DNA of 64,000 nt from a phage, in NCBI GenBank assembly GCA_033648345.1, contig GCA_033648345.1_4121.1, one strand, 5' to 3'. Positions 39,767-55,108 of this stretch are shown one piece after another; position 1 is the stretch's first letter; the number at the start of each line of letters is the position of its first letter. The translations under genes and the position numbers were made by a program. The notes beneath the pieces are model-generated. The model ran no database searches. It was not told the origin of the DNA and was given only the letters and a program-made list of their open reading frames with translations.

Positions 39767-39973
39767 ATGCAGAACATAAAAAACTATAAAGAGTACTATA
39801 TAAGTAAACTACCACCGACTGACCAAGCATGGATTAGATCTATAATAGTACTGGCATTTAATAGATATGCATTTAACAGATGTACCGAGATTGCTATAGA
39901 CCCTTATAATATTAAAGAGAATGTACAGCATAATCAGTACTACTATATGTTAATGCTTATATATAGGAAGTAA
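39767..39973 (+). CDS. small Tyr-rich protein, KEYY family
   Basis: MQNIKNYKEYYISKLPPTDQAW...MLMLIYRK; last member. Confidence 0.65.
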   Translation: MQNIKNYKEYYISKLPPTDQAWIRSIIVLAFNRYAFNRCTEIAIDPYNIKENVQHNQYYYMLMLIYRK

Positions 39974-40036
39974 TTCAACATATAGACAGGGGAAGCTCCG
40001 CAGGGAAAGCATTGGACAGGCTTTAACATATGTTAT

Positions 40037-40096
40037 ATATGTTAAAATTCAGCCTGCTCGACGTCTGAATTGTTAAAATTCAGCCTGGACAAATGC
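40037..40096 (+). repeat. direct repeat GTTAAAATTCAGCCTG x2 with small palindromes
   Basis: atgttaaaattcagcctgctcgacgtctgaattgttaaaattcagcctggac. Confidence 0.8.
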
Positions 40097-40127
40097 GATC
40101 ACTAGGATTCTCCCCAGGCTAAACCCC

Positions 40128-40198
40128 GTAATCATATGTAGTCATAAGTAATCATATATAAACATTTATGTAATCATTTATAATCATTGTAGTGATTA
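40128..40198 (+). repeat. iteron-like GTAATCA repeats (4 direct + 1 inverted)
   Basis: GTAATCA at 40128, 40148, 40170; TAATCA 40181; inverted TGATTA 40193. Confidence 0.75.
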
Positions 40199-40210
40199 GT
40201 ATTGAGTACT

Positions 40211-40236
40211 AGAGTGTAATAGAGTGTAATAGAGTA
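40211..40236 (+). repeat. tandem 10-mer AGAGTGTAAT x2.5
   Basis: agagtgtaatagagtgtaatagagta. Confidence 0.8.
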
Positions 40237-40387
40237 CAGGAATGTGCACGTTTAATCAAGAACGTAGCAGTACTGCCCCAAAAGTATTCAGTACTGAAGG
40301 TGTCGATATCCCACTAAGTAGGCAGAGGAAGTCTGCCGTACTTTTTAGTTTCCAAGCTCCTTTTCCATTTTGCAAATTACATCAAAT

Positions 40388-40415
40388 GTAATCAAAAGTA
40401 ATCACGCAATGATTA
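40388..40415 (+). repeat. second GTAATCA iteron cluster
   Basis: GTAATCA at 40388 and 40398; inverted TGATTA at 40410. Confidence 0.7.
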
Positions 40416-40681
40416 GTACTGAATTATTACTTTCACCTTAATTTCAATTACCCCTTTACCCTTCGGGGTAAAATTCCATTACCCCTTGAGGCTCCAGCAA
40501 AAAGTTGGTTAGTACTCCATCCTAAATCTCGATCCTAAAAATTTTGGAGTACCTATGAAATAAAAGTTGGATCTTCGAAAGTTGAAATTTACGTTGGGAC
40601 GTTTGTGATTTGTGGGATATAATGATGTTTGTAGTCGGGTAGTTCTCAAGAATATCAGTACTGAATGGTGAAAGAAAGTTA

Positions 40682-40709
40682 TTGACATTATGATTCAGTA
40701 CTGTATAAT
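40682..40709 (+). promoter_or_regulatory. orphan sigma70-like promoter (no ORF of 60 aa or more downstream before 42082)
   Basis: TTGACA-N16-TATAAT with CAGTACTG abutting the -10, then GTTTTACATAGAGAG as in gene cassettes. Confidence 0.55.
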
Positions 40710-40892
40710 GTTTTACATAGAGAGATGAGTTGCCGCAAACAATTCATTCACTCTACTTCCTGTCGTGAGACAGTACAGAAAGATAGTTCCTCCTATGGGT
40801 GGTACATCTTTTAGAACCTCTTTTTTCGTAATATGAACAGTACTGATATTAACAGAATGGTGTCAATACTGATTTTAATCTAAAGCATTATG

Positions 40893-40912
40893 CCACCAGC
40901 TTGTGCTGGTGG
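40893..40912. other. inverted pair of Chi octamers forming a hairpin
   Basis: CCACCAGC-ttgt-GCTGGTGG. Confidence 0.85.
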
Positions 40913-41125
40913 ATTCCCTCTAACAGTATTCAGTACTACATGATAGTCTTCATCCTCCTAGGGTAACATAGTGAGGGCTATGATGGCAGTACTGAATACT
41001 CCTTTCACAAGATAGATCTATGGTATAGTACTGACGTATTTTGGGCGTAGTTACCCTGGATGGATTTTGGACGTAGATATGTCTAGCCCTCCAGAAGTCT
41101 GGAAGTAAATATGGCTATCCATCTA

Positions 41126-41208
41126 GACGGCTAAACGGCTAGATTTCTGGATGGCTGGGTGGCTGGGTGGCTGGGTGGCTAGACGTTTGGACGGCTAAAC
41201 GGCTAGAT
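41126..41208 (+). repeat. tandem GGCTGGGT x3.5 (41153-41180) flanked by 19-bp direct repeats
   Basis: GACGGCTAAACGGCTAGAT at 41126-41144 and 41190-41208. Confidence 0.85.
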
Positions 41209-41412
41209 GGTTACACGTCTGGAAGTATAGACGGCTAAATCAAAATTTTATTTTGTTTTTTCCAATAGTTCCCCTACCGCGTGGGGATAGTTTCCCCGCA
41301 GTATCTGGAGTTAGATTTTTCTGAATCTGGAATCATTATCTTATAAACTGGGGGCAATGTCAACAGCCTGGACGGATATTTTTAAAAATTTTTTCAGTAC
41401 TGAATTTTGGGC

Positions 41413-41433
41413 GTAACTATGCACCCGGTGGGC
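41413..41433 (-). repeat. conserved core element copy I (candidate small RNA)
   Basis: Minus strand: TATAAT(41466-41461)..ATCAAGTCGAGAAAGACTCAA-GCCCACCGGGTGCATAGTTAC. Confidence 0.7.
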
Positions 41434-41580
41434 TTGAGTCTTTCTCGACTTGATGGAACTATTATACAGTACTGGAAAAATAAAGCAATACCCTGGAAGC
41501 AAAAAAGTTTTAATTAATTTGCTTGCTATCCTGGGCCGGACTATGGTACTATATTTCAGTACTGAGAAAGTGCGTTTACC

Positions 41581-41603
41581 TGCTAGGGTGCGGGAGTGTA
41601 TCC
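41581..41603 (+). repeat. conserved core element copy J+ (partial)
   Basis: TGCTAGGGTGCGGGAGTGTATCC + T7; preceded by ACT-GAGAA-AGT mini hairpin. Confidence 0.6.
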
Positions 41604-41628
41604 TTTTTTTATATCTTGAATTTTGGGC

Positions 41629-41649
41629 GTAATTCCGCACCCTCTGGGG
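41629..41649 (-). repeat. conserved core element copy J-
   Basis: Minus: TTGACT(41704-41699)-N16-TATAAT..ATAGACGCGAGAAAGCGGAAA-CCCCAGAGGGTGCGGAATTAC. Confidence 0.65.
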
Positions 41650-41859
41650 TTTCCGCTTTCTCGCGTCTATGTAGTAATTATACGCTTTTTCAGGATCAAG
41701 TCAATACCTAAAAACAAAATAATTGAAAATAATTTAACGCGTTTAAACGGCCAGTAAAGCCCTGGAATGATTGGAATGGTGCAAATGTATAGCTTAGGTG
41801 TATTAATGCGTTAGAATGCGTCTGAGGCCGTTTTATGGGGTATAGGGATGATTTGGTGG

Positions 41860-41990
41860 ATTGATTCAGTACTGAATAATAGTACTACTATATAGAAAGA
41901 TAGTTCCCCTGGATGGTTGCAGTACTGAATGATAGTACTGAATAATAGTTCCCCTATATAGAAAGAAAACTATTTTAAAAAGTATTTGTA
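41860..41990 (+). repeat. direct repeats of about 45 bp built from CAGTACTGAATAATAGT and CTATATAGAAAGA
   Basis: cagtactgaataatagtactactatatagaaagatagttcccct / tagtactgaataatagttcccctatatagaaagaaaac. Confidence 0.75.
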
Positions 41991-42081
41991 GAAAGTACTT
42001 GCAAACTAAGTTTAACGGCGTATAATGTTTTACATCGAGAGCGGGAACACTTCCCGCTACATATTACGAGAGATTAAAACG
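41985..42081 (+). promoter_or_regulatory. promoter + 5' stem-loop cassette (PeSL-like, class AGTACTTGCA)
   Basis: AGTACTTGCAA..TATAATGTTTTACATC; hairpin GCGGGAA-cac-TTCCCGC. Confidence 0.7.
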
Positions 42082-42444
42082 ATGGCGACTCAAATCACTA
42101 AAATTATTGCTAACCTGGTTAACTTCCGCGACGAGATGAAAGGTCTTCCGGCTGAAACGGTAAAAATTCACATCGCAGCTTATCGGGAACTTATTGCAAT
42201 GTTGCCGCTTAAGCGTGAACAATACGCCGCGACCGTGATGCTTGATGCGATGATCCATAAGATGATCGCCAGTGATTTGACGATGGCGTATCAGTATATG
42301 GGTGAATTGTTCGCGGTGTATAGTAAACCAGTACCAGGAATGGAAAGTACAGAAGTATTACACGGTTTAAATTTAAAACAAGATGCATGGGATAATATGC
42401 CTCGTTTCCTGGTATGGGCTGACAGTGGCAAGATTTACGAATAA
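42082..42444 (+). CDS. hypothetical protein
   Basis: ATG 42082 (MATQITK); track start 42025 begins in the TATAATG of the -10. Confidence 0.7.
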   Translation: MATQITKIIANLVNFRDEMKGLPAETVKIHIAAYRELIAMLPLKREQYAATVMLDAMIHKMIASDLTMAYQYMGELFAVYSKPVPGMESTEVLHGLNLKQDAWDNMPRFLVWADSGKIYE

Positions 42445-42536
42445 GTTTTAGAAAGTACTTGCAAACTAAGTTTAAAAGCGTATAATGTTTTACATCAGGT
42501 GGGGAATAGTTCCCCACTATATAAGAGGATTAAAAA
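42445..42536 (+). promoter_or_regulatory. promoter + 5' stem-loop cassette
   Basis: AGTACTTGCAA..TATAAT; hairpin GTGGGGAA-tag-TTCCCCAC; GAGGA RBS. Confidence 0.7.
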
Positions 42537-42776
42537 ATGGCTAAATCAAAAATGTTCTTAGGTCACAAAAACAAAACTCATTGGAATGTAAGCCTTTGGA
42601 TTAATAACGATGAGTCATTGTACCGGTTGGCCCTGGACTTTATTGCCGCCAATACTAATCGCAATGATGCGGCCCGTCATATGATGTTATTTTTAGAACA
42701 GACTGGACAAGATAAAACACCGGACGGATTCAAATATAGCACTACTGCGATCCGTGCGGCGATGGTTGGAATGTAA
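42537..42776 (+). CDS. hypothetical protein, paralogue of 44576
   Basis: GHKNKTHWNVSLWINN.ESLYRLA...TPDGFKYSTTAIRAAMVGM shared. Confidence 0.75.
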   Translation: MAKSKMFLGHKNKTHWNVSLWINNDESLYRLALDFIAANTNRNDAARHMMLFLEQTGQDKTPDGFKYSTTAIRAAMVGM

Positions 42777-42861
42777 TAGAATTTATTTAAAGTACTATCG
42801 CAAAAAATGATAGTACTTTATAATAGTGTTTTATTCATACACCAACGATAAGGGCAACAGC
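42777..42861 (+). promoter_or_regulatory. promoter (AGTACT-flanked, TTATAAT type), no 5' hairpin
   Basis: AAGTACTATCGCAAAAAATGATAGTACTTTATAAT; same type at 55790. Confidence 0.5.
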
Positions 42862-43128
42862 ATGAATATTAAGTATTTTGCGACGCGTGAACAAGCTCGG
42901 ATCGCCGCACGCCAGGACGGGGCAACGTTTAAAGATATGGGCGTACAATCGGAACGTGGTAAACGTTGGGCCATTATAAAGCGTAGTACCGCCAGATCAT
43001 TACAGTACTGGTTAGCGGCGTTAAAAAGTCCCGATAGTGTATCGCGTCGAGTGGTAGAAATAAAGCTCGACCGAAAGGGCAACCGCGTGACCGTGTACCG
43101 TACTAAAAAGATTGCAGTACTTGAATAA
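42862..43128 (+). CDS. hypothetical protein, paralogue of 55885
   Basis: KYFATREQARIAARQDGATFKDMG...RKGNRVTVYR shared. Confidence 0.7.
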   Translation: MNIKYFATREQARIAARQDGATFKDMGVQSERGKRWAIIKRSTARSLQYWLAALKSPDSVSRRVVEIKLDRKGNRVTVYRTKKIAVLE

Positions 43129-43215
43129 AAAGTACTTGCAAACTATGTTTAATGGCGTATAATGTTTTACATCGAGAGCGGGAACACTTCCCGCCTATAA
43201 CCTGGAGTAATAAAA
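43129..43215 (+). promoter_or_regulatory. promoter + 5' stem-loop cassette
   Basis: Near-identical to the 41985 cassette; hairpin GCGGGAA-cac-TTCCCGC. Confidence 0.7.
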
Positions 43216-43446
43216 ATGACTAATATGTATATGACTGAAGTTAAAACCGTAAAAGATACTACCACGAATAAAACTACTTACTTACAGCGGATCTGCGGTG
43301 TATGGCAACGTATCAGCAAATCAAAGTACTTTAAATTAACATCATATGCAAACCGTTCGGATTCATTCAGTACTGAAATAAAAGGTAATAAAGTACACCA
43401 ATACGGCACTTATTATTATTATAGCCTGGACGCGATTGCAGTATAA
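43216..43446 (+). CDS. hypothetical protein
   Basis: 76-aa ORF, GGAG RBS. Confidence 0.7.
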   Translation: MTNMYMTEVKTVKDTTTNKTTYLQRICGVWQRISKSKYFKLTSYANRSDSFSTEIKGNKVHQYGTYYYYSLDAIAV

Positions 43447-43527
43447 GCAGTTTACAAATCTTTACAATTGCCGGTATTGACTTATTTTGTCAGTACTGGC
43501 ATAATGTATTCATTGGCAGATAAGCCG

Positions 43528-43553
43528 TAGCCCATAGGGTGCGGGAGTGTATC
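43528..43553 (+). repeat. conserved core element copy F (candidate small RNA)
   Basis: TTGACT(43477)-N17-CATAAT(43500); GGC-agataa-GCC hairpin; TAGCCCATAGGGTGCGGGAGTGTATC. Confidence 0.75.
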
Positions 43554-43576
43554 TATAGAAAAAGTAGTTTATTACA

Positions 43577-43602
43577 GTTACAATTGTGCACCCGGTGGGT
43601 TA
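43577..43602 (-). repeat. conserved core element copy G, convergent with F
   Basis: Minus: TTGACA(43649-43644)-N17-CATAAT(43626-43621)..TAACCCACCGGGTGCACAATTGTAAC. Confidence 0.75.
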
Positions 43603-43693
43603 GCTGTTGTCATGGGGTATATTATGCCAGTACTTGATAATGCTGTCAATACTTTTTTTTACTATTCAGTACTGAAAACTATTTTTAAAAAGT

Positions 43694-43728
43694 ACTTGCA
43701 AACTATGTTTAAAGGCGTATAATGTTTT
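43694..43728 (+). promoter_or_regulatory. class AGTACTTGCA promoter driving the 75-nt structured element
   Basis: AGTACTTGCAA..GGCGTATAAT(43718-43723)GTTTTAC. Confidence 0.65.
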
Positions 43729-43806
43729 ACATCAGGACGGGGAACGAAATAAGTAACTCCCCGTTAAGTAGCCCAGGAGTAAGGCACACGAAAAACTCCC
43801 CTGATA
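43729..43806 (+). ncRNA. candidate structured leader / small RNA, copy 1
   Basis: ATCAGG..CCTGAT closing stem; ACGGGGA..TCCCCGT hairpin; GGAG-TAAGGCACACGAAAAA-CTCC hairpin. Confidence 0.45.
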
Positions 43807-43873
43807 AAATAGTTTGACAAATGTTTTTAAAAGCGTATAATACTTACATCAACTACTGAATGAGGGTTACAAA
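43807..43873 (+). promoter_or_regulatory. second (proximal) promoter, leader CATCAACTACTGA
   Basis: TTGACA(43814)-N16-TATAAT(43836); GAGGG RBS. Confidence 0.6.
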
Positions 43874-44485
43874 ATGAAAACTATCACTACTACTACTTTC
43901 GTTATGGATTTTTCTGAATTGAACGCAGAACAAAAAACGTCAGCTATCGAACTGGTTCGGGAACGTGAAAAAAACTCAAACGACAATTATTTTTCTGAAA
44001 GTGAAATTGAATACTATAAAGAAACAGTACTACCGGAATATGGCATTAATGACGCTGAAATACAATTCAGTGGTTTTTGGTCCCAGGGTGACGGTGCATC
44101 AATCAGTACTGACCACGTTGACGGTGTGAAGTTTTTACGCAAGGTAAGAGCATTAACTAAGTATCGCTCAATCCGTCACTTGCTGAATGAAGATGATTTG
44201 GCGATGAGTGTAAAGCGTTCTCATTCTTTGTACTTGCATGAGAATACTGTAAGCGGGTACATTGAATCGGCTTACACTGATTTAACCGCAAAACAAGAAA
44301 CGTTAGTTAATGAGCTTGAGGAACTACTCACTGAAACTATTCGTGAATTATCCCGCAAGTTGTACCGTGATTTAGAGAATGCATATGAGGATCAATTCAC
44401 TACTGAAAACATCGTATCACTGATTGAGGGTAACGAATATCAATTCAATGTTATTGATGGCGTAGTAGAATCAATCGAATATTAA
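43874..44485 (+). CDS. hypothetical protein
   Basis: 203-aa ORF; FSGFWSQGDGA motif, function not recognised. Confidence 0.8.
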   Translation: MKTITTTTFVMDFSELNAEQKTSAIELVREREKNSNDNYFSESEIEYYKETVLPEYGINDAEIQFSGFWSQGDGASISTDHVDGVKFLRKVRALTKYRSIRHLLNEDDLAMSVKRSHSLYLHENTVSGYIESAYTDLTAKQETLVNELEELLTETIRELSRKLYRDLENAYEDQFTTENIVSLIEGNEYQFNVIDGVVESIEY

Positions 44486-44575
44486 TTCAAAAAGTACTTG
44501 CAAACTAAGTTTAAAAGCGTATAATACTTTATATCGAGGCGGGGAGTGGTTCCCCGCTCAAACGAGGATTTAAAA
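44486..44575 (+). promoter_or_regulatory. promoter + 5' stem-loop cassette
   Basis: AGTACTTGCAA..TATAAT; hairpin GCGGGGA-gtggt-TCCCCGC. Confidence 0.7.
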
Positions 44576-44815
44576 ATGGCTAGTACTAAAACTTATAACG
44601 GACACAAAAACAAAACTCAATGGAATGTAAGCCTTTGGATTAATAACGGTGAGTCATTGTATCGGCTTGCACAAAGTTGTATCGCACAAAGTAGAACTAA
44701 AGATATTGCAGCGGAATGCATGTACCGCAGATTAAAAGCCAACGGTACTACTACAACGCCGGACGGCTTTAAGTATAGCACTACTGCGATCCGTGCTGCA
44801 ATGGTTGGAATGTAA
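44576..44815 (+). CDS. hypothetical protein, paralogue of 42537
   Basis: ATG 44576 (MASTKTYNGHKNKTQWNVSLWINN). Confidence 0.75.
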   Translation: MASTKTYNGHKNKTQWNVSLWINNGESLYRLAQSCIAQSRTKDIAAECMYRRLKANGTTTTPDGFKYSTTAIRAAMVGM

Positions 44816-44873
44816 TATTCAGTACTGTAACAATGGCGGGGAATGGTTCCCGCCTTTATTGAGGGTTTATCTA
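44816..44873 (+). promoter_or_regulatory. stem-loop (terminator or 5' hairpin) upstream of 44874
   Basis: CAGTACTGTAACAAT then GGCGGGGAA-tgg-TTCCCGCC + TTTATT. Confidence 0.5.
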
Positions 44874-45134
44874 ATGAGTAAAGTAATTAACTATACAGTA
44901 CTAAGCAAGTCATTGTCTATCAGTGAATGCACCGATGGTTTTTGGCTTTATGATGAAACGCGTGGAATGAATTTAGCTATGCGTGTAAAAACTGCTGAGG
45001 CGGCGTATCTTGAGGCACTGGAATACTACCAGGAACGTTTAACGGAAGTAGAAGAAGATTATAAAAGCCTCAAAGCGAAAGTAGATCATTTCGTCGGTCA
45101 ATTCATCGAGGAAGACGACGATAAACAATACTGA
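44874..45134 (+). CDS. hypothetical protein
   Basis: ATG 44874 (MSKVINY) after GAGGG; track start 44793 overlaps the upstream gene. Confidence 0.65.
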   Translation: MSKVINYTVLSKSLSISECTDGFWLYDETRGMNLAMRVKTAEAAYLEALEYYQERLTEVEEDYKSLKAKVDHFVGQFIEEDDDKQY

Positions 45135-45222
45135 AAAAAAGTACTTGCAATTAGTTTTCAGTACTGTATAATAGTTTACATCAAGTGGAGAAATGGTTCT
45201 CCCTGGTAATGAGGAAAATAAA
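45135..45222 (+). promoter_or_regulatory. promoter + 5' stem-loop cassette
   Basis: AGTACTTGCAA..CAGTACTGTATAAT; hairpin GGAGAA-atgg-TTCTCC. Confidence 0.7.
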
Positions 45223-45444
45223 ATGGCTAATATCACTACTCTTTCCCAACTGGAAGCACTGGTTAAATCTATGCGGGAACATGCCGACAAAATCGGCGTA
45301 CAAGATCCAGCCGTTTGCTTCTGCGACGAATTGAATGATGATACCCTTGTAATAGCAGAAGTCCAGGACGTTTCTAACTATTCCTCGCGTTACACTGGCG
45401 GCGTAGCAAATAAAGGCGACTTCTGTTTATACCTTACAAAATAA
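45223..45444 (+). CDS. hypothetical protein
   Basis: ATG 45223 (MANITTL) after GAGGA. Confidence 0.7.
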   Translation: MANITTLSQLEALVKSMREHADKIGVQDPAVCFCDELNDDTLVIAEVQDVSNYSSRYTGGVANKGDFCLYLTK

Positions 45445-45449
45445 CAACG

Positions 45450-45479
45450 CGGGGAGATAATAACTCCCCGTTACTTTTT
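45450..45479. terminator. hairpin terminator
   Basis: CGGGGAG-ataataa-CTCCCCG + TTACTTTTT. Confidence 0.65.
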
Positions 45480-45502
45480 CAGTACTGAATCATTTAATAG
45501 AC

Positions 45503-45525
45503 GGATCTATGCACCCGGTGGGTTA
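45503..45525 (-). repeat. conserved core element copy H (candidate small RNA)
   Basis: Minus: TTGACA(45579-45574)-N17-CATAAT(45556-45551)..GAC-gaaaca-GTC..TAACCCACCGGGTGCATAGATCC. Confidence 0.75.
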
Positions 45526-45599
45526 GTGACTGTTTCGTCTTGATGTAGTAATTATGCCAGTACTGGATGCAGTTGTCAACAACTATTTTTCAAATACTT

Positions 45600-45687
45600 T
45601 TTATTAAAATACTTGCAATTAGTTTTTAAACGCGTATAATGTTTTGCATAGGGGGAGCGGTTCCCCTGGTAACTAAGGAATAATAAA
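45600..45687 (+). promoter_or_regulatory. promoter + 5' stem-loop cassette
   Basis: ATACTTGCAA..TATAAT; hairpin AGGGG-gagcggtt-CCCCT. Confidence 0.65.
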
Positions 45688-45924
45688 ATGCTTGAACAAA
45701 TCAAATCAACGTCTGCGAATGTAACGGGAACGGTAGCACACTTTACTAGTGATGAATCGCGGGGCGTTCCCTATTGTGCTGTACATGTAAACACTGATGG
45801 CAACTACTGGTTTACGGTTTACGGATCATATTCATTTGGACGGCCTGGGCATCAAAAAATTCTGGATAAAGTACAACCAACGGGTAAAAATATCACTGCC
45901 GAAATGTTTTATAAAAAATCATAA
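45688..45924 (+). CDS. hypothetical protein
   Basis: 78-aa ORF, AAGGA RBS. Confidence 0.7.
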   Translation: MLEQIKSTSANVTGTVAHFTSDESRGVPYCAVHVNTDGNYWFTVYGSYSFGRPGHQKILDKVQPTGKNITAEMFYKKS

Positions 45925-50375: not shown

Positions 50376-50510
50376 ATGAATCCTAACGGTTTAATTTACA
50401 GTACTCCTAAAACGAAAGCAGATAAAGCGAAAGCACGTAAAGCGAAAGTAAAGGAGTACATTAAGCAAGGCATGACGCGAAAGGCGGCAGTACTGAAAGC
50501 TAAAAAATAA
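50376..50510 (+). CDS. possible 44-aa Lys-rich peptide
   Basis: MNPNGLIYSTPKTKADKAKARKAKVKEY...; TAAATG junction. Confidence 0.4.
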   Translation: MNPNGLIYSTPKTKADKAKARKAKVKEYIKQGMTRKAAVLKAKK

Positions 50511-50520
50511 ATGAAAAAAG

Positions 50521-50552
50521 TGGTTGACTTCGGTCAGCCATTTTGCTATTAT
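50521..50552 (+). promoter_or_regulatory. UUCG hairpin terminator with embedded -35 and downstream -10
   Basis: TGGTTGAC-TTCG-GTCAGCCA; TATTAT 50547-50552. Confidence 0.7.
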
Positions 50553-50575
50553 ATATTCATTGAGAGATAGCTCAC

Positions 50576-50601
50576 TAGCCCACCGGGTGCATAAGTGTAT
50601 C
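50576..50601 (+). repeat. conserved core element copy A (candidate small RNA)
   Basis: GAG-agatag-CTC hairpin then TAGCCCACCGGGTGCATAAGTGTATC. Confidence 0.75.
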
Positions 50602-50629
50602 TATTATATAAGTATTGAGTACTGAAAAC

Positions 50630-50724
50630 TATTTTTAAAAAGTACTTGCAAACTATCTCAATAAGCGTATAATGTTTTACATCGAAAGGGGAAACGGTTT
50701 CCCCTGGTAATAAGGAAACAAATC
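50630..50724 (+). promoter_or_regulatory. promoter + 5' stem-loop cassette
   Basis: AGTACTTGCAA..TATAAT; hairpin AGGGGAAAC-gg-TTTCCCCT. Confidence 0.7.
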
Positions 50725-51066
50725 ATGACTATTGCAATTGCTCAATCTAACTTTGAAAATGAAATCATCGCCCAGGCACTGCGTTTAAATGATGGTCGGG
50801 CCGAAATTAATTACGGTTTCAATTCAGGCGGTTGTGAAAAATATCAGTACTTTGTAACTGCTGATGGCGGTGTCCTGGGCATCAATACCGTTATTGTAAA
50901 CATTCAGAAAATTAATTTCAATGATCCAGACGATAGCCAGTTTTACATTGTAGGCGTAGACGTGAACTATGAGGATGACTCACTAACTGATGATCACACT
51001 GGCGAGCGGTTAGAAAGTGCATACGGTGAAGATGATTATCAGTCCGGTCCAGAAGATTTCGAATAA
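50725..51066 (+). CDS. hypothetical acidic protein
   Basis: 113-aa ORF, AAGGAA RBS. Confidence 0.75.
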   Translation: MTIAIAQSNFENEIIAQALRLNDGRAEINYGFNSGGCEKYQYFVTADGGVLGINTVIVNIQKINFNDPDDSQFYIVGVDVNYEDDSLTDDHTGERLESAYGEDDYQSGPEDFE

Positions 51067-51157
51067 TATAAAAAATAGTTTGACAATAGATTATAGTACT
51101 GTATAATTAATTACATCAAGGGGAGAATAGTTCTCCCCAACTAAGAGGAAAAAGAAA
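51067..51157 (+). promoter_or_regulatory. promoter + 5' stem-loop cassette (TTGACA class)
   Basis: TAGTTTGACAATAGATTATAGTACTGTATAAT; hairpin GGGGAGAA-tag-TTCTCCCC. Confidence 0.7.
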
Positions 51158-51340
51158 ATGGCTGAATTAATCGCTCGGAATACAATTGCAGGCGTTGAAG
51201 ATGTAACATTATCATATGATTCAGATAAACAAGTTTACGTCGTTCGTTATGGTCTGATTGGTGTTAACGTTGATTATATTGATGAAGCCTTTGAAAAATA
51301 CTTTGAATTTATTAATATGGCTTATAATGATTATCGTTAA
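51158..51340 (+). CDS. hypothetical protein
   Basis: 60-aa ORF. Confidence 0.65.
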   Translation: MAELIARNTIAGVEDVTLSYDSDKQVYVVRYGLIGVNVDYIDEAFEKYFEFINMAYNDYR

Positions 51341-51430
51341 AAAATAGTTTGACAATAGATTATAGTACTGTATAATAGTTTACATCAAGGGGAGAAAAAC
51401 TTCTCCCCACTAACAGAGAGAGAAAACAAA
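51341..51430 (+). promoter_or_regulatory. promoter + 5' stem-loop cassette (TTGACA class)
   Basis: Same promoter as 51067; hairpin GGGGAGAA-aaac-TTCTCCCC. Confidence 0.7.
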
Positions 51431-51643
51431 ATGGCTAATATCTGCACTGTACTGAAAAATGCAAAACAAGTTTTATTTTCTGATCACGATCATTTAAACA
51501 AGGATATTACGGGCGTTCGGAATATCAAAGATGTAAAAAGTGTTATGGGTATCTATTGCAATATGAAACGTGTCGGCACGTTCGGCGATAAAGTACTATA
51601 CCAGGCAGGGGATTATAACTTCACATTAACCATCATCAATTAA
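51431..51643 (+). CDS. hypothetical protein
   Basis: 70-aa ORF. Confidence 0.7.
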   Translation: MANICTVLKNAKQVLFSDHDHLNKDITGVRNIKDVKSVMGIYCNMKRVGTFGDKVLYQAGDYNFTLTIIN

Positions 51644-51733
51644 AATATATTACCAGTACTATTGACAACGTTTGATAGTACTGTATAATAAGTTTTATAA
51701 ACAGTAGTTAACTTAACCTAAGAGAGAAACAAA
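51644..51733 (+). promoter_or_regulatory. promoter class AGTACTATTGACA..AGTACTGTATAAT
   Basis: CCAGTACTATTGACAACGTTTGATAGTACTGTATAAT. Confidence 0.65.
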
Positions 51734-51877
51734 ATGATCGCACTGGATTCATTCATCGACGCAGTACTGGCAAAAACTGGCGAGGATCTGACCGCAGAAC
51801 AATACGCGATGATCGAGCAATGTCAGCAAAACGGTAAATCGGTGAAAGATACTGTTAAGATTATCCGCAAGATGTAA
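51734..51877 (+). CDS. hypothetical small protein (47 aa, not in track), paralogue of 47551
   Basis: MIALDSFIDAVLAKTGEDL...; GAGAGA RBS. Confidence 0.6.
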   Translation: MIALDSFIDAVLAKTGEDLTAEQYAMIEQCQQNGKSVKDTVKIIRKM

Positions 51878-51883
51878 TATTAT

Positions 51884-51912
51884 AGCCCACTGGTTAACGC
51901 TGGTGGGCTTTA
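51884..51912 (+). terminator. hairpin terminator containing a Chi octamer
   Basis: AGCCCAC-tggttaacgctg-GTGGGCT; GCTGGTGG at 51899-51906. Confidence 0.6.
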
Positions 51913-51982
51913 ATCATTTACCCTATACAATGCCAGTACTCAACCGTTTATCTCGTTAGAATGCGTTACAGGACGTTTGACA

Positions 51983-52180
51983 ATGATTAGCATGAAATCA
52001 GTACAAAAACAAATAGAAACATTATCAAAAATTAAACGTAAACAATACTCCTTAGAATATACAATCAATGGTAACTATCATCTAATGAAAGAAAATAATT
52101 TTATAGTCATTGATGAATCATTGCAAATTATTAGTATAGTACTGAAAGCATTAATCAATGACAGAAAAAAATTAAAATAA
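51983..52180 (+). CDS. hypothetical protein (start uncertain)
   Basis: AT-rich ORF; ATG 51983 or 51992; no clear RBS. Confidence 0.4.
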   Translation: MISMKSVQKQIETLSKIKRKQYSLEYTINGNYHLMKENNFIVIDESLQIISIVLKALINDRKKLK

Positions 52181-52183
52181 TTG

Positions 52184-52212
52184 TTGACATACAATGCCAG
52201 TACTGGCATAAT
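52184..52212 (+). promoter_or_regulatory. promoter of core element copy E
   Basis: TTGACA-N17-CATAAT with CCAGTACTGG in the spacer. Confidence 0.65.
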
Positions 52213-52237
52213 ACTTACATCAAGACGAGAACGTCAC

Positions 52238-52263
52238 TAACCCATAGGGTGCACAAATGTAAC
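52238..52263 (+). repeat. conserved core element copy E (candidate small RNA)
   Basis: GAC-gagaac-GTC hairpin then TAACCCATAGGGTGCACAAATGTAAC. Confidence 0.75.
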
Positions 52264-52274
52264 TATATAATATC

Positions 52275-52347
52275 GATCAATAAATGATCAAAAAAGTACT
52301 GGATCAATTTAGCATAAGGAGTATAATTCTGATCAATTCTTGATCAA
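52275..52347 (+). repeat. cluster of five GATCAA motifs
   Basis: GATCAA at 52275, 52286, 52302, 52331, 52342. Confidence 0.8.
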
Positions 52348-52407
52348 AGGCAATATACGCAGTTGAATTTATATAGACAGTACAAAGGCGTTACTATCCG
52401 TGGTAAT

Positions 52408-52415
52408 GCTGGTGG
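52408..52415 (+). other. Chi octamer
   Basis: GCTGGTGG. Confidence 0.9.
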
Positions 52416-52508
52416 ATATGTAGTATCATATGGTTTGAATAAGATTAGCACTAGTAGTATTATTGTAGCATTACAGTACTATAGTATTTTTATAATGAGG
52501 TTAAAATA

Positions 52509-52766
52509 ATGGCTGTTGGATTCGCGAAGGACGGGGCCGAGCAAGACGAGATTAACGCAGTGATTCAGGCCGCTGTAAACCACGCTAGAAAGCAAATTAA
52601 CGCACAAAGAGAATCACTGGTACATTGCCTCGACTGCGGCGATAAAATCCCTGAGAATCGACGCCAGGCCGTTATAGGGTGCATGTATTGTATTACTTGC
52701 CAGGAGGATCATGATAGTACTTTTAAAAGAGATCCGCGTAATTGTTGGCATAGATCTATGAGATAA
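52509..52766 (+). CDS. TraR/DksA-family C4 zinc-finger protein
   Basis: CLDCGDKIPENRRQAVIGCMYCITCQ matches the TraR/DksA C-x2-C-x17-C-x2-C pattern. Confidence 0.8.
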   Translation: MAVGFAKDGAEQDEINAVIQAAVNHARKQINAQRESLVHCLDCGDKIPENRRQAVIGCMYCITCQEDHDSTFKRDPRNCWHRSMR

Positions 52767-52830
52767 AAAGTAATTGACAGTACTGAAAGATAGTGTATAA
52801 TGTTTTATATCTTAACTGAGGATTGAAATC
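52767..52830 (+). promoter_or_regulatory. sigma70-like promoter
   Basis: TTGACAGTACTGAAAGATAGTGTATAAT; GAGGA RBS. Confidence 0.65.
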
Positions 52831-53187
52831 ATGGGTATTCAACACATCACGCGTACTACTGACAATGGCGAGATCACTGGTTATCAGGTACAGGGCAAAG
52901 TAGCACAATTGCAGTACTGGTTTGTTAAACGTGGAATCATTGCACCGGATCTTGATTATGACCGTGTAGCGTTTATTGATTCTCTTTATGTTGATCCTGA
53001 TAGTCGGGGCAATGGTGAAGGTAACGAATTAATGAATGCCTTTATTGATGCCGCCGATGATTCAGATTGTATCATCTTAGAATGCGATACGGGAGAAGAT
53101 AACGCCTTTAATCTTAAAGAATGGTACGAAGGCTTCGGATTCGAGGTATTGATAGATAGTGAATATCCTATCATGATTTTATCATAG
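52831..53187 (+). CDS. GNAT-family N-acetyltransferase (small)
   Basis: LYVDPDSRGNGEGNELMNAF (acetyl-CoA motif A-like R-G-x-G-x-G) and C-terminal YEGFGFE. Confidence 0.7.
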   Translation: MGIQHITRTTDNGEITGYQVQGKVAQLQYWFVKRGIIAPDLDYDRVAFIDSLYVDPDSRGNGEGNELMNAFIDAADDSDCIILECDTGEDNAFNLKEWYEGFGFEVLIDSEYPIMILS

Positions 53188-53266
53188 TACTTGCATTTAG
53201 TTTTCAGTACTGTTATAGTACTTGCATCAAGGGGAAACATCTTCCCCTACTAAGAGGAAATAAAAA
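53188..53266 (+). promoter_or_regulatory. promoter + 5' stem-loop cassette
   Basis: AGTACTTGCATTTAG..; hairpin AGGGGAA-acatc-TTCCCCT. Confidence 0.6.
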
Positions 53267-53455
53267 ATGGAAAACTTATCAAGTATTTTAGTACAAGATG
53301 ATTTCGGTAATCCTGGAAGTGCTATCATTGTTCGGGGCAATAAAGCAACGTTTGTTATTGCTGGTGGACCCGTACAGCGTAGCATTAAAAATAATGCTGT
53401 TACCATTAATAATGTACGCTATCGCTTAGATAAAGAATTAATTCATAAACTGTAA
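53267..53455 (+). CDS. hypothetical protein
   Basis: 62-aa ORF; contains Chi at 53360. Confidence 0.7.
   Translation: MENLSSILVQDDFGNPGSAIIVRGNKATFVIAGGPVQRSIKNNAVTINNVRYRLDKELIHKL
53360..53367 (+). other. Chi octamer (in coding sequence)
   Basis: GCTGGTGG. Confidence 0.9.
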
Positions 53456-53482
53456 TATTAATTTAATAGAGGATAACAATAA

Positions 53483-53806
53483 ATGTACATTCATACTACT
53501 ATCACAAAGGAAGTCCGTTGCCAGTTCGAAAGTATTCCGGGCGTATGTTTCATCACTGGTACGTTTTCCCCTGGTGATCGTGATAATCCAGTACTGTTAC
53601 AATTACGCCATCCATCATGGGATAAAGCATTTGATCTACCGTTGAATGAATTCGCAACTACTGCTGAAAAGTACATTAAAAATATTCGCGAGAATGATCG
53701 ACTATTCATTAATGCTTTTAGTGATTCCGCGTTAAGCGAGATCCACGGCGTATTGGTTGCAATCATGGAATCAATGCAGAAAACTAAATTCAAACAAGGT
53801 GAATAA
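53483..53806 (+). CDS. hypothetical protein
   Basis: 107-aa ORF, GAGGA RBS; the antisense 136-aa ORF in the track looks spurious. Confidence 0.7.
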   Translation: MYIHTTITKEVRCQFESIPGVCFITGTFSPGDRDNPVLLQLRHPSWDKAFDLPLNEFATTAEKYIKNIRENDRLFINAFSDSALSEIHGVLVAIMESMQKTKFKQGE

Positions 53807-53889
53807 AAACTATTGACAATGCAATCCAGTACTGTATAATAGTTTACATGAAGGGGAGAAATGATTCTCCCCACTAAGAGGAAAGAAAA
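53807..53889 (+). promoter_or_regulatory. promoter + 5' stem-loop cassette (TTGACA class)
   Basis: TTGACAATGCAATCCAGTACTGTATAAT; hairpin GGGGAGAA-atga-TTCTCCCC. Confidence 0.7.
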
Positions 53890-54102
53890 ATGCAAGGTCA
53901 ACTAATCGTTCGTAAATGGTCTGATACTAACGAAAAACCGTGGGATGTACAATACATCGCCCCAAATGGTGAATCCAGATATCAACCAGGTGTAACGCAT
54001 AGTACTGAGCAATTCGCCGCCGCTCATCGCGAACGTCTGTTACAATCAATGCAGCAAGGTTCCGGTGAAAAATTCATTCAGGATCATTGGCTGAAAGATT
54101 AA
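53890..54102 (+). CDS. hypothetical protein
   Basis: 70-aa ORF. Confidence 0.7.
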   Translation: MQGQLIVRKWSDTNEKPWDVQYIAPNGESRYQPGVTHSTEQFAAAHRERLLQSMQQGSGEKFIQDHWLKD

Positions 54103-54188
54103 AAAGTACTTGCACTGTACTGAATAAAGTGTATAATGTTTTATATCGGAAGGGGAATAGTTCCCCTCCGAACAAAGAGGAAAGTATA
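54103..54188 (+). promoter_or_regulatory. promoter + 5' stem-loop cassette
   Basis: AGTACTTGCAC..TATAAT; hairpin GGAAGGGGAA-tag-TTCCCCTCC. Confidence 0.7.
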
Positions 54189-54362
54189 ATGGTCCAGGTA
54201 GAATTAACAGTACTGAAAGATCTGTTTTATCGGATTGGTACTACTGGCGAATATCCGAAGGGTGATAATGCAAAACTTTACGTATCACTCGACTTATGGC
54301 AACGCGAACAATTAGCAACGGCCTGGCGTAAAGGCAAAGCAGATCGAGAGGTGAAAGCATGA
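54189..54362 (+). CDS. hypothetical small protein (57 aa)
   Basis: ATG 54189 (MVQVELTVL) after GAGGAA. Confidence 0.6.
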   Translation: MVQVELTVLKDLFYRIGTTGEYPKGDNAKLYVSLDLWQREQLATAWRKGKADREVKA

Positions 54363-54508
54363 AAGAATTCTTATTTGAAGTAGTGTTTCAAGGTGTCGGC
54401 AATAACCAACTGATTCGATCAAGTGGTTATAATGTTAACCAGGCATGGAATAACATTAAACAAATGTACCCGAACGCTATCACATATCGCAACCCGAAAG
54501 AAGTTTAA
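54359..54508 (+). CDS. hypothetical small protein (49 aa, not in track)
   Basis: ATGA overlap; MKEFLFEVVFQGVGNNQ... Confidence 0.5.
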   Translation: MKEFLFEVVFQGVGNNQLIRSSGYNVNQAWNNIKQMYPNAITYRNPKEV

Positions 54509-54522
54509 AAATAATTGAAAAA

Positions 54523-54555
54523 GGGATTGACTCCGGTCAGTCCCTTTGCTATTAT
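54523..54555 (+). promoter_or_regulatory. UCCG hairpin terminator with embedded -35 and downstream -10
   Basis: GGGATTGAC-TCCG-GTCAGTCCC; TATTAT 54550-54555. Confidence 0.7.
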
Positions 54556-54573
54556 ATACGCATAGAAACAAAT

Positions 54574-54599
54574 TAGCCCACCGGGTGCATAAATGTATC
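54574..54599 (+). repeat. conserved core element copy B
   Basis: TAGCCCACCGGGTGCATAAATGTATC followed by Chi GCTGGTGG at 54608. Confidence 0.75.
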
Positions 54600-54607
54600 T
54601 ATTGTTT

Positions 54608-54615
54608 GCTGGTGG
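54608..54615 (+). other. Chi octamer (intergenic)
   Basis: GCTGGTGG 9 nt after core element B. Confidence 0.9.
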
Positions 54616-54688
54616 CTAGTACTATCAAGTACTGAAAACTATTTTTAAAAAGTACTTGCAAAGTATCACGATAAGCGTATAATGTTTT

Positions 54689-54763
54689 ACATCAGGACGG
54701 GGAACGAAACAAGTAACCCCGTTAAGTAGTCCAGGAGTAAGACATACGAAAAACTCCCCTGAT
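54689..54763 (+). ncRNA. candidate structured leader / small RNA, copy 2
   Basis: Near-identical to copy 1 with a few substitutions and a 1-nt deletion that keeps ACGGGG..CCCCGT paired. Confidence 0.45.
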
Positions 54764-54832
54764 AAAATAGTTTGACAATAGAAAGTAAACGAGTATAATA
54801 CTTACATCAACCACTGATAAGGAAACATTAAA
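54764..54832 (+). promoter_or_regulatory. proximal promoter, leader CATCAACCACTGA
   Basis: TAGTTTGACAATAG..GAGTATAATACTTACATCAACCACTGATAAGGAAA. Confidence 0.6.
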
Positions 54833-55108
54833 ATGCGGATTCTACTGACAGCTAACGAAATCGAACAAGTACTGACTACTAACCTGGAAGACTGGAAACG
54901 TGAAGCAGATATCCAGGCGGTTCAATGGCTTAACGATAAGTTAACGCCGGATGACTTAAGCAAGATTGTAGATCCTCAATTCTACGAAGATATTCACGAC
55001 ACCGCGTTAAGCGTCGAGGATGTACTTGATAAGCACTACATTGATACTGATTTACATGTTTACGGTCGTAAAAACTTTATCACTATTCACGACATTTACA
55101 ATACTTAA
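54833..55108 (+). CDS. hypothetical protein
   Basis: 91-aa ORF. Confidence 0.75.
   Translation: MRILLTANEIEQVLTTNLEDWKREADIQAVQWLNDKLTPDDLSKIVDPQFYEDIHDTALSVEDVLDKHYIDTDLHVYGRKNFITIHDIYNT

Follow-up and report, generated by a model that had tools for sequence, protein, structure and literature searches.

The window, meaning the whole 64,000-nucleotide stretch of phage DNA that was analysed, comes from an Asteriusvirus jumbo phage of the PBECO4/121Q group, and the locus considered here lies 3.2 kb inside the ~21.5-kb direct terminal repeat of that phage. Genes from 34967 to 64000 are all on the plus strand. No terminator was found by scan after the gene at 43216-43446, and no open reading frame of at least 40 amino acids occurs within 43447-43873. 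Two copies of a repeated element, F on the plus strand and G on the minus strand, point at each other in this interval, the minus-strand partner having no downstream gene. The ten open reading frames that flank the pair match only PHROGs without known function or DUF7249. An earlier note on this DNA had called the arrangement unusual for a compact lytic phage; "compact" has to be withdrawn, as the genome is that of a ~350-kb E. coli jumbo phage. The locus is made up as follows.

43477-43505, plus strand: copy F promoter, 10/12 match, extended -10 TGgCATAAT, the 17-bp spacer holding CAGTACTG
43512-43558, plus strand: RNA module F, predicted start A43512, R2 match 47.4 bits, E 2e-11
43528-43553, plus strand: copy F core
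43559-43571, no strand: central spacer of the pair, 13 bp, AAAAAGTAGTTTA
43613-43572, minus strand: RNA module G, predicted start A43613, R1 match 50.5 bits, R2 match 28.5 bits
43602-43577, minus strand: copy G core
43662-43621, minus strand: copy G promoter, TGgCATAAT, 11/12 match, with an A8 tract upstream (43662-43655) that is UP-element-like

The positions that the earlier note gave for both promoters and both cores proved correct to the base. Copy F has -35 TTGACT (43477-43482) and -10 CATAAT (43500-43505), and copy G has -35 TTGACA (43649-43644) and -10 CATAAT (43626-43621); in both, the spacer is 17 bp long and the -10 is preceded by TG. That these are two opposed near-consensus promoters is borne out by eight Asteriusvirus orthologues of the locus, in which the F hexamers are invariant and those of G are either invariant or nearer consensus (TATAAT). 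The predicted start sites, on opposite strands, are 101 bp apart. The claim of a 23-bp gap between the cores (43554-43576) lacking a terminator was confirmed by coordinate check and by a terminator scan, which detected no intrinsic terminator (hairpin plus T-run) on either strand at 43553-43577. The central spacer contains AGTAGT at the place where four other pairs of the same 56-nt spacing have the palindrome AGTACT. An imperfect inverted repeat surrounds the -35 of copy F, and none was noted for copy G. In the orthologues the 56-nt spacing is kept and the P1/leader alleles between promoter and core are swapped; at 88-100% identity the locus is found in 36 records, either unannotated or with tiny ORF calls only.

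The "core element" of the earlier note is indeed a repeated element, its 18-nt core string occurring three times in the window against 0.01 expected, but it does not stand as a bare motif, since it is part of a covarying structured RNA module. On comparative grounds this predicted module is ~50 nt long and consists of two hairpins, P1 and P2, and a purine-rich tail, with a sigma70-type promoter directly upstream. Transcription is predicted to start 1-3 nt before P1, which is followed by P2, GC, and a purine-rich tail of ~16 nt ending in UAUCUAU. The P2 hairpin (R-CCC-AYA-GGG-U) and the GC next to it are invariant, whereas the P1 stem is variable and covaries, around a purine-rich loop. In module F, P1 is at 43514-43527 (UGGC-AGAUAA-GCCG), P2 at 43530-43540 (GCCC-AUA-GGGU) and the tail at 43541-43558 (GCGGGAGUGUAUCUAUAG); a second P1 allele at F in 121Q, A4 and TH47 (AUUG-AAACGAA-CAAU) preserves the hairpin. 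Module G has a leader, AUGACAACAGCUA, without P1, followed by P2 at 43600-43590 (ACCC-ACC-GGGU) and the tail at 43589-43572, and at the same position EJP2 and WPEC3 carry a leader with the canonical P1 GAC-GAGAAA-GUC.

Several measures of covariation point to P1 as an RNA structure. Pairing in the model alignment reached 94.9% of cells versus 74% in shuffles and 26-53% in slid controls, counts that are somewhat inflated because the alignment was fitted to the structure. Double-change cells numbered 114 versus 42 in shuffles, with 20-36 double changes at each of the four P1 pairs, and the covariation score of 0.418 (0.14 shuffled) was reached by none of 500 shuffles. Leaders with a stem of at least 4 bp made up 62%, versus 26% in shuffles (maximum 39%), and comprised 32 distinct stems; the conserved purine-rich P1 loops include GAGAAA and GCGAAA. 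For P2 two C-G to U-A double changes were seen, and RNAalifold recovered the same two helices. Conservation of the module follows a structural, not a codon-like, pattern, and the folding stability of the isolated modules is ordinary (z -1.1 for F, +0.4 for G). A type I toxin-antitoxin or cis-antisense pair, in which an antisense RNA would overlap the frame of a small toxic peptide, was also considered; at a threshold of 40 amino acids, 43447-43873 holds no frame for such a peptide. Two further pairings were considered. An outer stem between leader and tail (AGAUA/UAUCU) was rejected as a general feature, because its register is not the same from copy to copy and the stem overlaps P1; perhaps only the class that lacks P1 has it. 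Pseudoknot pairing of the P1 loop with the tail fits, by eye, only AGAUAA loops and not GAGAAA, GCGAAA or AGAACAA, and it was likewise dropped.

Eleven copies of the family are present in the window. Those other than F and G are listed here, "with" and "against" referring to the direction of the genes.

41405-41500, minus strand: single copy against the genes, P1 AGUC-GAGAAA-GACU, facing the iteron array and the genome end
41523-41610, plus strand: plus member of a second pair, weak promoter (8/12), P1 GUAC-UGAGAAA-GUGC possible; below model thresholds, structure by eye
41621-41704, minus strand: minus member of the second pair, promoter TTGACT-16-TATAAT (41704-41677), module 41672-41621 with P1 CGC-GAGAAA-GCG
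45440-45579, minus strand: complete small-RNA gene against the genes, promoter TTGACA-17-CATAAT (45579-45551), module 45546-45495
50517-50606, plus strand: copy with the genes, promoter embedded in a terminator-like hairpin, no terminator after the module
52184-52268, plus strand: copy with the genes, P1 GACG-AGAA-CGUC
54520-54604, plus strand: copy with the genes, class without P1, promoter inside a terminator-like hairpin
57798-57887, plus strand: copy with the genes, best R2 match (64.1 bits), promoter inside a terminator-like hairpin
60249-60333, plus strand: copy with the genes, class without P1, promoter inside a terminator-like hairpin

The second convergent couple described in the earlier note is real, its GGGTGC anchors lying at 41586 (plus) and 41642 (minus) with a spacing of 56 nt. 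Its plus member has a P2-like hairpin (ACCU-GCUA-GGGU) and a tail, and then the T7 run that the note reported (41604-41610), and a weak terminator-like site, 41585-41604 plus T7, is found there. In the gene at 45440-45579 the module is followed by CAGTACTG and then by an intrinsic terminator at 45470-45450, and the copy at 41405-41500 is the only single against the genes without a nearby hairpin or terminator.

A covariance-model search of the window and of Rak2-like jumbo-phage contigs returned 86 matches to the module, of which 78 are distinct. The matching contigs include those attributed to 121Q, RaK2, GAP32 and CBB as well as further jumbo phages, and one matching locus is 100% identical to fHe-Yen9-04; the hosts of phages carrying the module are Escherichia, Klebsiella, Cronobacter, Pectobacterium and Yersinia. 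A sigma70-like promoter that matches at 8/12 or better precedes each of the 88 anchored copies, and for 77 of them the match is at least 10/12, compared with 5.8% of random windows. All copies of the family are inside the terminal repeat, ~10 per repeat and ~20 per packaged genome. The direct terminal repeat of Rak2-like jumbo phages was suspected in the CBB paper to be an early-gene region. Non-coding RNAs of 236-451 nt, highly expressed, have been reported in the long terminal repeat of the related jumbo phage PA5oct (PMC7318152); homology to these was rejected, the best R2 score in the PA5oct repeat being 14 bits.

No Rfam 15 family matched the window at its gathering threshold, and none up to E 10 overlapped any copy in 41300-45700; no tRNA or tmRNA was found in the window. 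When 185,579 genomes of bacteria and archaea were scanned by pattern for a host counterpart, only chance matches came up, which scored at most 27 bits with R2 even though preselected for 15 conserved bases, and the whole F/G pair had no match by blastn in 5,426 E. coli genomes. An RNA anti-CRISPR, i.e., a solitary CRISPR repeat unit in a phage, would match a host CRISPR repeat in sequence and hairpin; the I-E and I-F repeats of E. coli are not known to resemble R-CCC-AYA-GGG-UGC. Complements of the tails of at least 10 nt within the window were confined to their own loci and a few scattered sites, and neither this search nor the annotation of flanking open reading frames yielded a binding partner or target for the module. 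A literature search on Asteriusvirus and Rak2-like promoters and RNAs brought up neither the module nor expression data for any Rak2-like enterobacterial phage. The family, a set of putative promoter-driven structured RNA units, appears to be undescribed, and its copies occur only in the direct terminal repeat of these jumbo phages.

Among the related phages examined, 15 close convergent pairs were identified, which represent 10 lineages distinct in sequence; the anchors are spaced by exactly 56 nt (nine pairs), 67 nt (two) or 74 nt (four). There are no close tandem pairs and only one close divergent pair, a distribution with p ~1e-6 under random orientation, and conservation of the face-to-face geometry extends over several phage genera. 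Because the head-on layout recurs at fixed spacings in relatives, it looks designed, not accidental. At the dyad, AGTACT occurs in four of the nine 56-nt pairs, and a perfect Fur-box core, AATGATAATCATT, in four of the six pairs spaced by 67 or 74 nt; the two pairs of the window itself contain no Fur box, no intact central palindrome and no perfect AGTACT. Partner arms are 62% identical versus 65% among all family members, and an origin of the pairs as palindromes of MITE or Correia type was rejected on this ground, the arms being not specially alike. Read-through RNAs of the F/G pair fold into long hairpins (-37.9 and -28.7 kcal/mol; z -4.4 and -4.7), and the idea that the pair itself forms a terminator was rejected, as no U-run follows these hairpins.

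Orientation relative to the genes separates the single copies into two kinds. Of 57 classifiable singles, 37 point with the genes and none of these has a terminator within 130 nt. Among the 20 oriented against them, 14 are followed by a strict terminator at +41 to +46, and five of the remaining six have a hairpin at the same place by eye. Each pair for which gene direction can be called consists of one copy with and one against the genes. A stop rule is read from these positions: copies against the genes are, as predicted from sequence, halted within ~100 nt, either by a terminator ~45 nt downstream or by an opposing copy, one single being the exception. A copy against the genes together with a terminator ~45 nt downstream makes up a compact gene for a predicted RNA of ~100 nt.

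Parts of this organization recall systems known from other phages. In the 186 pR/pL and P2 Pe/Pc regions, promoters stand face to face ~60-100 bp apart and are classic examples of transcriptional interference; each drives an operon, the two forming a lysis-lysogeny switch. The F/G promoters are similarly opposed, with 101 bp between predicted starts and no terminator, and polymerase collision and occlusion would be expected. They differ from the 186 and P2 switches in that G has no downstream gene and the module specified by F and by G is the same, in a phage described as lytic. Structured RNAs directly downstream of early promoters are also found in lambda nut and HK022 put, which include a hairpin with a variable stem and a purine-rich loop. 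Unlike nut and put, the present module shows no boxA by eye, its other hairpin is the invariant one, and a third of copies point against the genes, the singles among them mostly with a terminator. As promoter, module and terminator at constant distance, singles against the genes such as 45579-45440 resemble stand-alone small-RNA genes, from which the family departs in having ~10 paralogues per repeat with one invariant hairpin, in the many copies that lack a terminator and would read into genes, and in pairs of the F/G type, where an opposing gene would replace the terminator.

The PeSL cassettes of T4-type phages, which combine a terminator with a promoter, are also comparable (PMC2839356, PMC4122927). 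Like these, the present units are short cassettes repeated between genes, with early promoters close to the sigma70 consensus, adjoining small open reading frames without known function; alleles are exchanged between close relatives, and a terminator-like stem-loop contains the -35 in four window copies (50517, 54520, 57798 and 60249). Unlike PeSLs as far as described there, the present cassettes have a covarying two-hairpin RNA after the promoter, occur on both strands (about 40% against the genes) and form convergent pairs at fixed spacing; neither a conserved RNA module nor inverted or antisense cassettes are mentioned in the passages of PMC4122927 examined.

Taken together, these findings led to a proposal, held at about even confidence, that F and G are two small-RNA genes without terminators that stop each other, their complementary 3' ends being a by-product. 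Host RNA polymerase would start at ~43512 on the plus strand and ~43613 on the minus strand, finish the ~47-nt module, and then run into a complex that sits at the other promoter or has set out from it, so that the opposing promoter and its polymerases would replace the missing terminator. In relatives, a protein on the dyad palindrome could strengthen the block. Two short RNAs would result, with 3' ends complementary over ~25 nt, or up to ~100 nt if the polymerases pass each other; antisense pairing, and possibly cutting by RNase III, would be a consequence of the design and not its purpose. Transcripts of copies pointing with the genes would run on into the next gene. Points against mutually stopping genes as the main reading are the ordinary stability of the isolated modules, the absence of P1 from G, whose R2 score is only 28.5 bits, and the lack of a perfect AGTACT in the pairs of the window. 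As for function, the invariant P2-GC element most likely binds one conserved host or phage protein, and if so the RNA would serve as a decoy or regulator present in abundance. Copies with the genes, lacking terminators, may act only as 5' leaders, which counts against a purely trans-acting RNA.

Alternatives that place the purpose of the pair elsewhere were weighed against these observations. The earlier note proposed mutually antisense RNAs and/or promoter interference, and complementary transcripts are indeed unavoidable if both promoters fire; a device built for the duplex, e.g., for RNase III-dependent processing or regulation, would also suit the strong z scores of the read-through hairpins and the conserved pair layout. 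It is nonetheless quite improbable as the purpose, as most family members are single and the partner arms (62% vs 65%) show no sign of selection for a better duplex or hairpin: being no more alike than any two members, they leave the hairpin and dsRNA potential as a by-product of homology. The trans duplex of opposite-strand transcripts is perfect by definition and so imposes no constraint testable in sequence. The pair could instead be a transcriptional gate or insulator whose RNAs are waste, with G blocking read-through from the upstream gene and from F into the unit that follows, and the balance possibly set by a dyad protein (e.g., Fur or a factor that binds AGTACT), as happens in switches with convergent promoters. 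The fixed 56-, 67- and 74-nt spacings, the dyad palindrome in many pairs, the absence of a terminator after 43216-43446 and the conservation of both the F and G promoters would fit a gate, which is still considered unlikely: it leaves unexplained both the structural conservation of the transcribed module in the two partners and the stand-alone terminated genes with the same module, and the window's own pairs lack an intact central palindrome.

Other explanations start from the module or from the DNA. A variable-stem P1 with a purine-rich loop recalls boxB, and the module might be a 5' leader that acts in cis on the transcribing polymerase, as nut and put do, and lets early transcripts pass the many intergenic terminators in the repeat; G and all others against the genes would then be side products, or antisense devices for a delayed shut-off. 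This would account for a module that opens the predicted transcript right behind a strong promoter, for the conserved purine-rich loops (GAGAAA, GCGAAA) on variable P1 stems, and for the lack of any terminator behind the 37 of 57 singles oriented with the genes, whose long transcripts would face many terminators and terminator-promoter composites in the repeat. On the other hand, the 20 singles against the genes, with a terminator or hairpin at a constant ~45 nt, would be senseless if the module defeats terminators, the invariant element is P2 and not the P1 loop, no boxA-like sequence was seen by eye, and no N-like or Q-like protein is annotated, the neighbouring open reading frames having no known function; a polymerase-modifying leader is accordingly rated improbable. 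Finally, the element might work as DNA, i.e., as a MITE- or Correia-like palindrome, a PeSL-like recombination cassette, or an R-loop origin primed from both promoters. The position near the genome end and the iteron array would agree, as would the exchange of whole leader alleles at one locus between close relatives, as for shuffling cassettes, and the four copies with a promoter inside a terminator-like hairpin, as in PeSLs (PMC4122927). The strong P1 covariation argues for selection on a single-stranded fold in one promoter-linked orientation, and the arms are not especially alike. A persistent R-loop, for its part, would call for an RNA without structure, and a DNA-level element is regarded as very unlikely.

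A further-reaching version of the favored reading of F and G as small-RNA genes, possible but doubtful, makes the module an abundant immediate-early decoy RNA encoded in many copies, in which P2-GC would capture a conserved host protein (a defence sensor, nuclease or RNA chaperone) upon entry of the genome end. Convergent pairs would then be terminator-free generators of duplex-joined RNA dimers, or polymerase-collision devices gated by a dyad protein (Fur or an AGTACT-binding factor).

Isolation of Rak2-group jumbo phages for use in therapy is under way, yet the annotations examined leave their 20-kb terminal repeats blank, both in the ~50 genes and in the non-coding parts. Here an unannotated 430-bp gap has led to a defined family of structured RNAs, described by a covariance model. 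In addition, the quantised spacing and the stop rule suggest that opposing promoters can stand in for terminators, an unusual way for transcripts to end. Should the RNA be a decoy or a polymerase modifier, it would constitute a new early take-over mechanism, and a decoy in particular a new RNA-based host take-over or anti-defence system in jumbo phages; otherwise, the module would still serve as an early-region marker and as a source of strong, compact promoter-RNA parts. Apart from the copies described, the terminal repeat is rich in terminator-promoter composites and intrinsic terminators, and an iteron array is located near the genome end.

The two facing copies of the small-RNA unit, F on the plus strand and G on the minus strand, lie where the earlier note had placed them, as all of its coordinates were borne out on reading of the sequence from 43200 to 43950:

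43477-43505, plus strand, F promoter (TTGACT at 43477-43482, 17-bp spacer, CATAAT at 43500-43505)
43528-43553, plus strand, F core, TAGCCCATAGGGTGCGGGAGTGTATC
43649-43621, minus strand, G promoter (TTGACA at 43649-43644, CATAAT at 43626-43621)
43602-43577, minus strand, G core, TAACCCACCGGGTGCACAATTGTAAC

A consensus scan gave promoter scores of 10/12 for F and 11/12 for G, with TG preceding the -10 in both, and confirmed that the cores are separated by 23 bp having no terminator-like site. The predicted start sites, A43512 (F) and A43613 (G), are 101 bp apart, and no ORF of at least 40 aa is found between 43446 and 43874. The second couple that had been proposed is also real, with GGGTGC at 41586 (plus) and 41642 (minus) and the plus copy continuing into T7. 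The description "compact lytic phage" was wrong, since about 34 Asteriusvirus jumbo phages (~350 kb; PBECO4, 121Q, G17 and Sharanji among them) match the window at 95-98% identity. The record for one relative, vB_Ec-M-J, annotates a direct terminal repeat at 1-21525, and its base 1 is window position 40317; the terminal repeat therefore occupies approximately 40.3-61.8 kb, with F/G 3.2 kb and the 41586/41642 pair 1.3 kb from the left genome end. From 34967 onward every gene is on the plus strand, and thus G is directed against gene flow. No known function was recovered for the ORFs flanking F/G.

The window has 11 occurrences of GGGTGC within its conserved context:

41586, 43537, 50585, 52247, 54583, 57866 and 60312, plus strand, module copies
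41426, 41642, 43593 and 45516, minus strand, module copies

A pattern scan of IMG/VR, followed by covariance models (R1 and R2), yielded 86 family matches, 78 of them distinct, in the window and in contigs matched to 121Q, RaK2, GAP32 and CBB; one module locus is a 100% match to fHe-Yen9-04, a Yersinia phage, and several module-bearing jumbo contigs have relatives among Salmonella, Klebsiella and Erwinia phages. A sigma70-type promoter precedes every anchored copy (the anchor being the first G of GGGTG), scoring at least 10/12 in 77/88 vs 5.8% of random windows, with 26-28 or 31-36 nt from the end of the -10 to the anchor. A conserved CAT or CAA at the expected start site is followed directly by hairpin P1 (stem of 3-5 bp; purine-rich loop of 6-8 nt, GAGAAA, GCGAAA, AGAUAA or AGAACAA), a 4-5 nt linker, the invariant hairpin P2 (R-CCC-AYA-GGG-U), GC, and a tail of ~16 nt (rrRrnUGUAUCUAU). 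P1 has 32 different stem sequences, and its covariation is strong: 94.9% of P1 cells pair (74% in shuffles), 114 cells are double changes (42 in shuffles), and the covariation score of 0.418, vs 0.14, was reached by none of 500 shuffles, while slid controls gave pairing of only 26-53%. Both helices were independently recovered by RNAalifold, and P2 has two double changes from C-G to U-A. About 15 copies, including G, are missing P1 and have an A-rich leader in its place. Taken alone, the modules are small and of ordinary stability (z of -1.1 for F and +0.4 for G), and support for the predicted fold comes from comparison between copies; no Rfam family matches it.

Fifteen close convergent pairs were found, with anchor-to-anchor spacing of exactly 56 nt (nine pairs, including both in the window), 67 nt (two) or 74 nt (four); next in distance comes a single divergent pair, 160 nt apart, and all others are at least 561 nt apart. 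The pairs represent 10 lineages less than 80% similar to one another, and the convergence of all 10 (p ~1e-6 under random orientation) marks the face-to-face layout as a conserved design. Eight Asteriusvirus genomes compared at the orthologous F/G locus have invariant -35 and -10 hexamers in both promoters and the same spacing, except for CMSTMSU (flagged UNVERIFIED), whose record has small deletions there. F's P1 has two alleles, both of which fold (UGGC-AGAUAA-GCCG and AUUG-AAACGAA-CAAU), and in EJP2 and WPEC3 a leader whose P1 is canonical, GAC-GAGAAA-GUC, stands in place of the P1-less leader of G. This locus is contained in 36 records, with 88-100% identity, and is unannotated or has only tiny ORF calls over it.

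Copies were further classed by the direction of the surrounding ORFs. The 37 single copies running with the genes are never followed by an intrinsic terminator within 130 nt; ahead of them lie a second promoter class (TTGCAA-16-TATAAT) and then the next gene. Among the 20 single copies running against the genes, 14 are followed, at +41 to +46 from the anchor, by a strict terminator, and five of the other six have a hairpin, judged by eye, at the same position. One terminated copy of this kind is in the window:

45579-45440, minus strand, against-gene copy with its terminator

Fourteen of the 15 pairs consist of one copy with and one against the genes, with no terminator between them; for the L040 pair, from a related phage, gene direction could not be called. 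With terminators or hairpins after the single copies, and an opposing copy in the pairs, firing against the genes would thus always be stopped within ~100 nt. In pairs, the opposing promoter and its polymerases are proposed to replace the terminator; with start sites 101 bp apart, each polymerase could complete the ~47-nt module before meeting the complex at the other promoter, a geometry that fits mutual stopping. The anatomy of the F/G family is well established, and this mechanism is held with moderate confidence. Against-gene copies and all pairs are confined to the first ~5.3 kb of the terminal repeat, deeper copies all running with the genes (41426-45516 vs 50585-60312 in the window, 1084-5601 vs 10394-20126 in vB_Ec-M-J, and also the related locus L011); the pairs of fHe-Yen9-04 are 0.3 and 3.3 kb from base 1 of its record. 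An imperfect inverted repeat surrounds F's -35 (43470-43500, minus strand, GCCGGTATTGAC / GTCAGTACTGGC), folds on the G read-through transcript at -19.2 kcal/mol (z -3.5), and could be a secondary stop for G, though a U-run after it is absent.

The interpretation first given to the pair, overlapping antisense transcripts, is partly supported. The transcripts of the two strands are complementary by construction, and read-through would give long hairpins on both F (-37.9 kcal/mol, z -4.4) and G (-28.7 kcal/mol, z -4.7). However, the two arms of a pair are 62% alike, vs 65% for any two family members, a comparison giving no evidence of selection for hairpin or duplex, and the potential to form them is therefore a by-product of homologues placed tail to tail. 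As for the RNA itself, the existence of stand-alone terminated copies argues that it works as a free small RNA, and P2-GC, being invariant where P1 stems and tails vary freely, suggests a site bound by a single conserved protein. The with-gene copies may serve as 5' leaders, either in addition or exclusively; their position suits a nut/put-like role, but the terminators after against-gene copies are at odds with it. No targets complementary to the tails were found within the window, nor a host counterpart of the module, nor a relative in the terminal repeat of PA5oct, from which non-coding RNAs are expressed. The closest known systems include the PeSL terminator-promoter cassettes of T4-type phages (four window copies have a -35 inside a terminator-like hairpin), the convergent-promoter switches of temperate coliphages, and ordinary small-RNA genes, but none of these has a conserved structured RNA together with use of both strands and terminator-less pairs of fixed spacing.

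AGTACT occurs at +24 to +36 from the anchor in 34/58 single copies (mode +27), where the background density is one per 182 nt. Four of the nine 56-nt pairs have one AGTACT placed +25/+26 from either anchor (25 + 6 + 25 = 56), a single site that both modules share; at the window pair centres, F/G has AGTAGT and 41586/41642 nothing recognisable. The 67- and 74-nt pairs, in other phages, have a Fur-box-like palindrome at the centre (e.g., GAGAATGATAATCATTTAC), lying exactly there at the following sites, with similar ones in L008 and L011:

2825-2837 and 8083-8095, locus L002 of a related phage
3123-3135, locus L032, likewise
6094-6106, locus L039, likewise

The fetched loci have six perfect AATGATAATCATT cores in total, of which four are exactly at the centres of 67- or 74-nt pairs, and the window has neither a perfect core nor a Fur-box-like palindrome. 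The motif hints at iron or Fur control of those pairs, and a protein at the dyad could add to or regulate the block, which is a lead and not a result. Across the window AGTACT is found 275 times in 64 kb, vs about 22 expected (e.g., 43491-43498, 43667-43674, 45480-45487), and CAGTACTG 63 times vs about 1, in coding and non-coding DNA alike and most densely in the terminal repeat. Sites are in promoter spacers, just before the -35 of TTGCAA-type promoters, ~27 nt past module anchors, and inside some terminator stems (AGTACTGG...CCAGTACT). AGTACT may be bound by a phage factor or may mark the genome as a whole; a literature search on the palindrome found nothing.

Several other features in and around the terminal repeat were observed:

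39973-42025, ORF-free 2-kb stretch containing the repeat start (genome end ~40317)
40131-40404, repeated GTAATCA motifs
41080-41240, 8-bp iteron array (TGGCTGGG, CGGCTAAA, CGGCTAGA)
41363-41335, further leftward promoter
42020-42041, 43696-43800, 50646-50720 and 54656-54720, second repeated unit
50517-50552, 54520-54555, 57798-57833 and 60249-60284, composite terminator-promoters

Possible roles for the ORF-free iteron region are as an origin, in packaging or in end recognition. The second repeated unit, AAAAAGTAC-TTGCAA-16-TATAAT followed by GTTTTACATC and a GGGGAA...TTCCCC hairpin, is directly upstream of most plus-strand genes in the terminal repeat and is probably the regular gene promoter with a conserved 5' UTR hairpin. 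The composite elements, the same idea as PeSLs, have a 12-bp stem and 4-nt loop (AAAGGGATTGACTCCGGTCAGTCCCTTT), with the -35 in the stem and a T-run leading into the -10 (TATTAT). In vB_Ec-M-J, the genes in 1-21525 stand 60-250 bp apart and every gap has a promoter of its own; immediately past the repeat small genes overlap or abut in operon-like fashion, and no RNA module was found there (21526-50000). One 10-kb part of the window (50400-60500) has eleven perfect 12/12 sigma70 promoters on the plus strand, ten of them TTGACA-16-TATAAT and the other with a spacer of 17 bp, so that ideal host promoters are unusually dense there.
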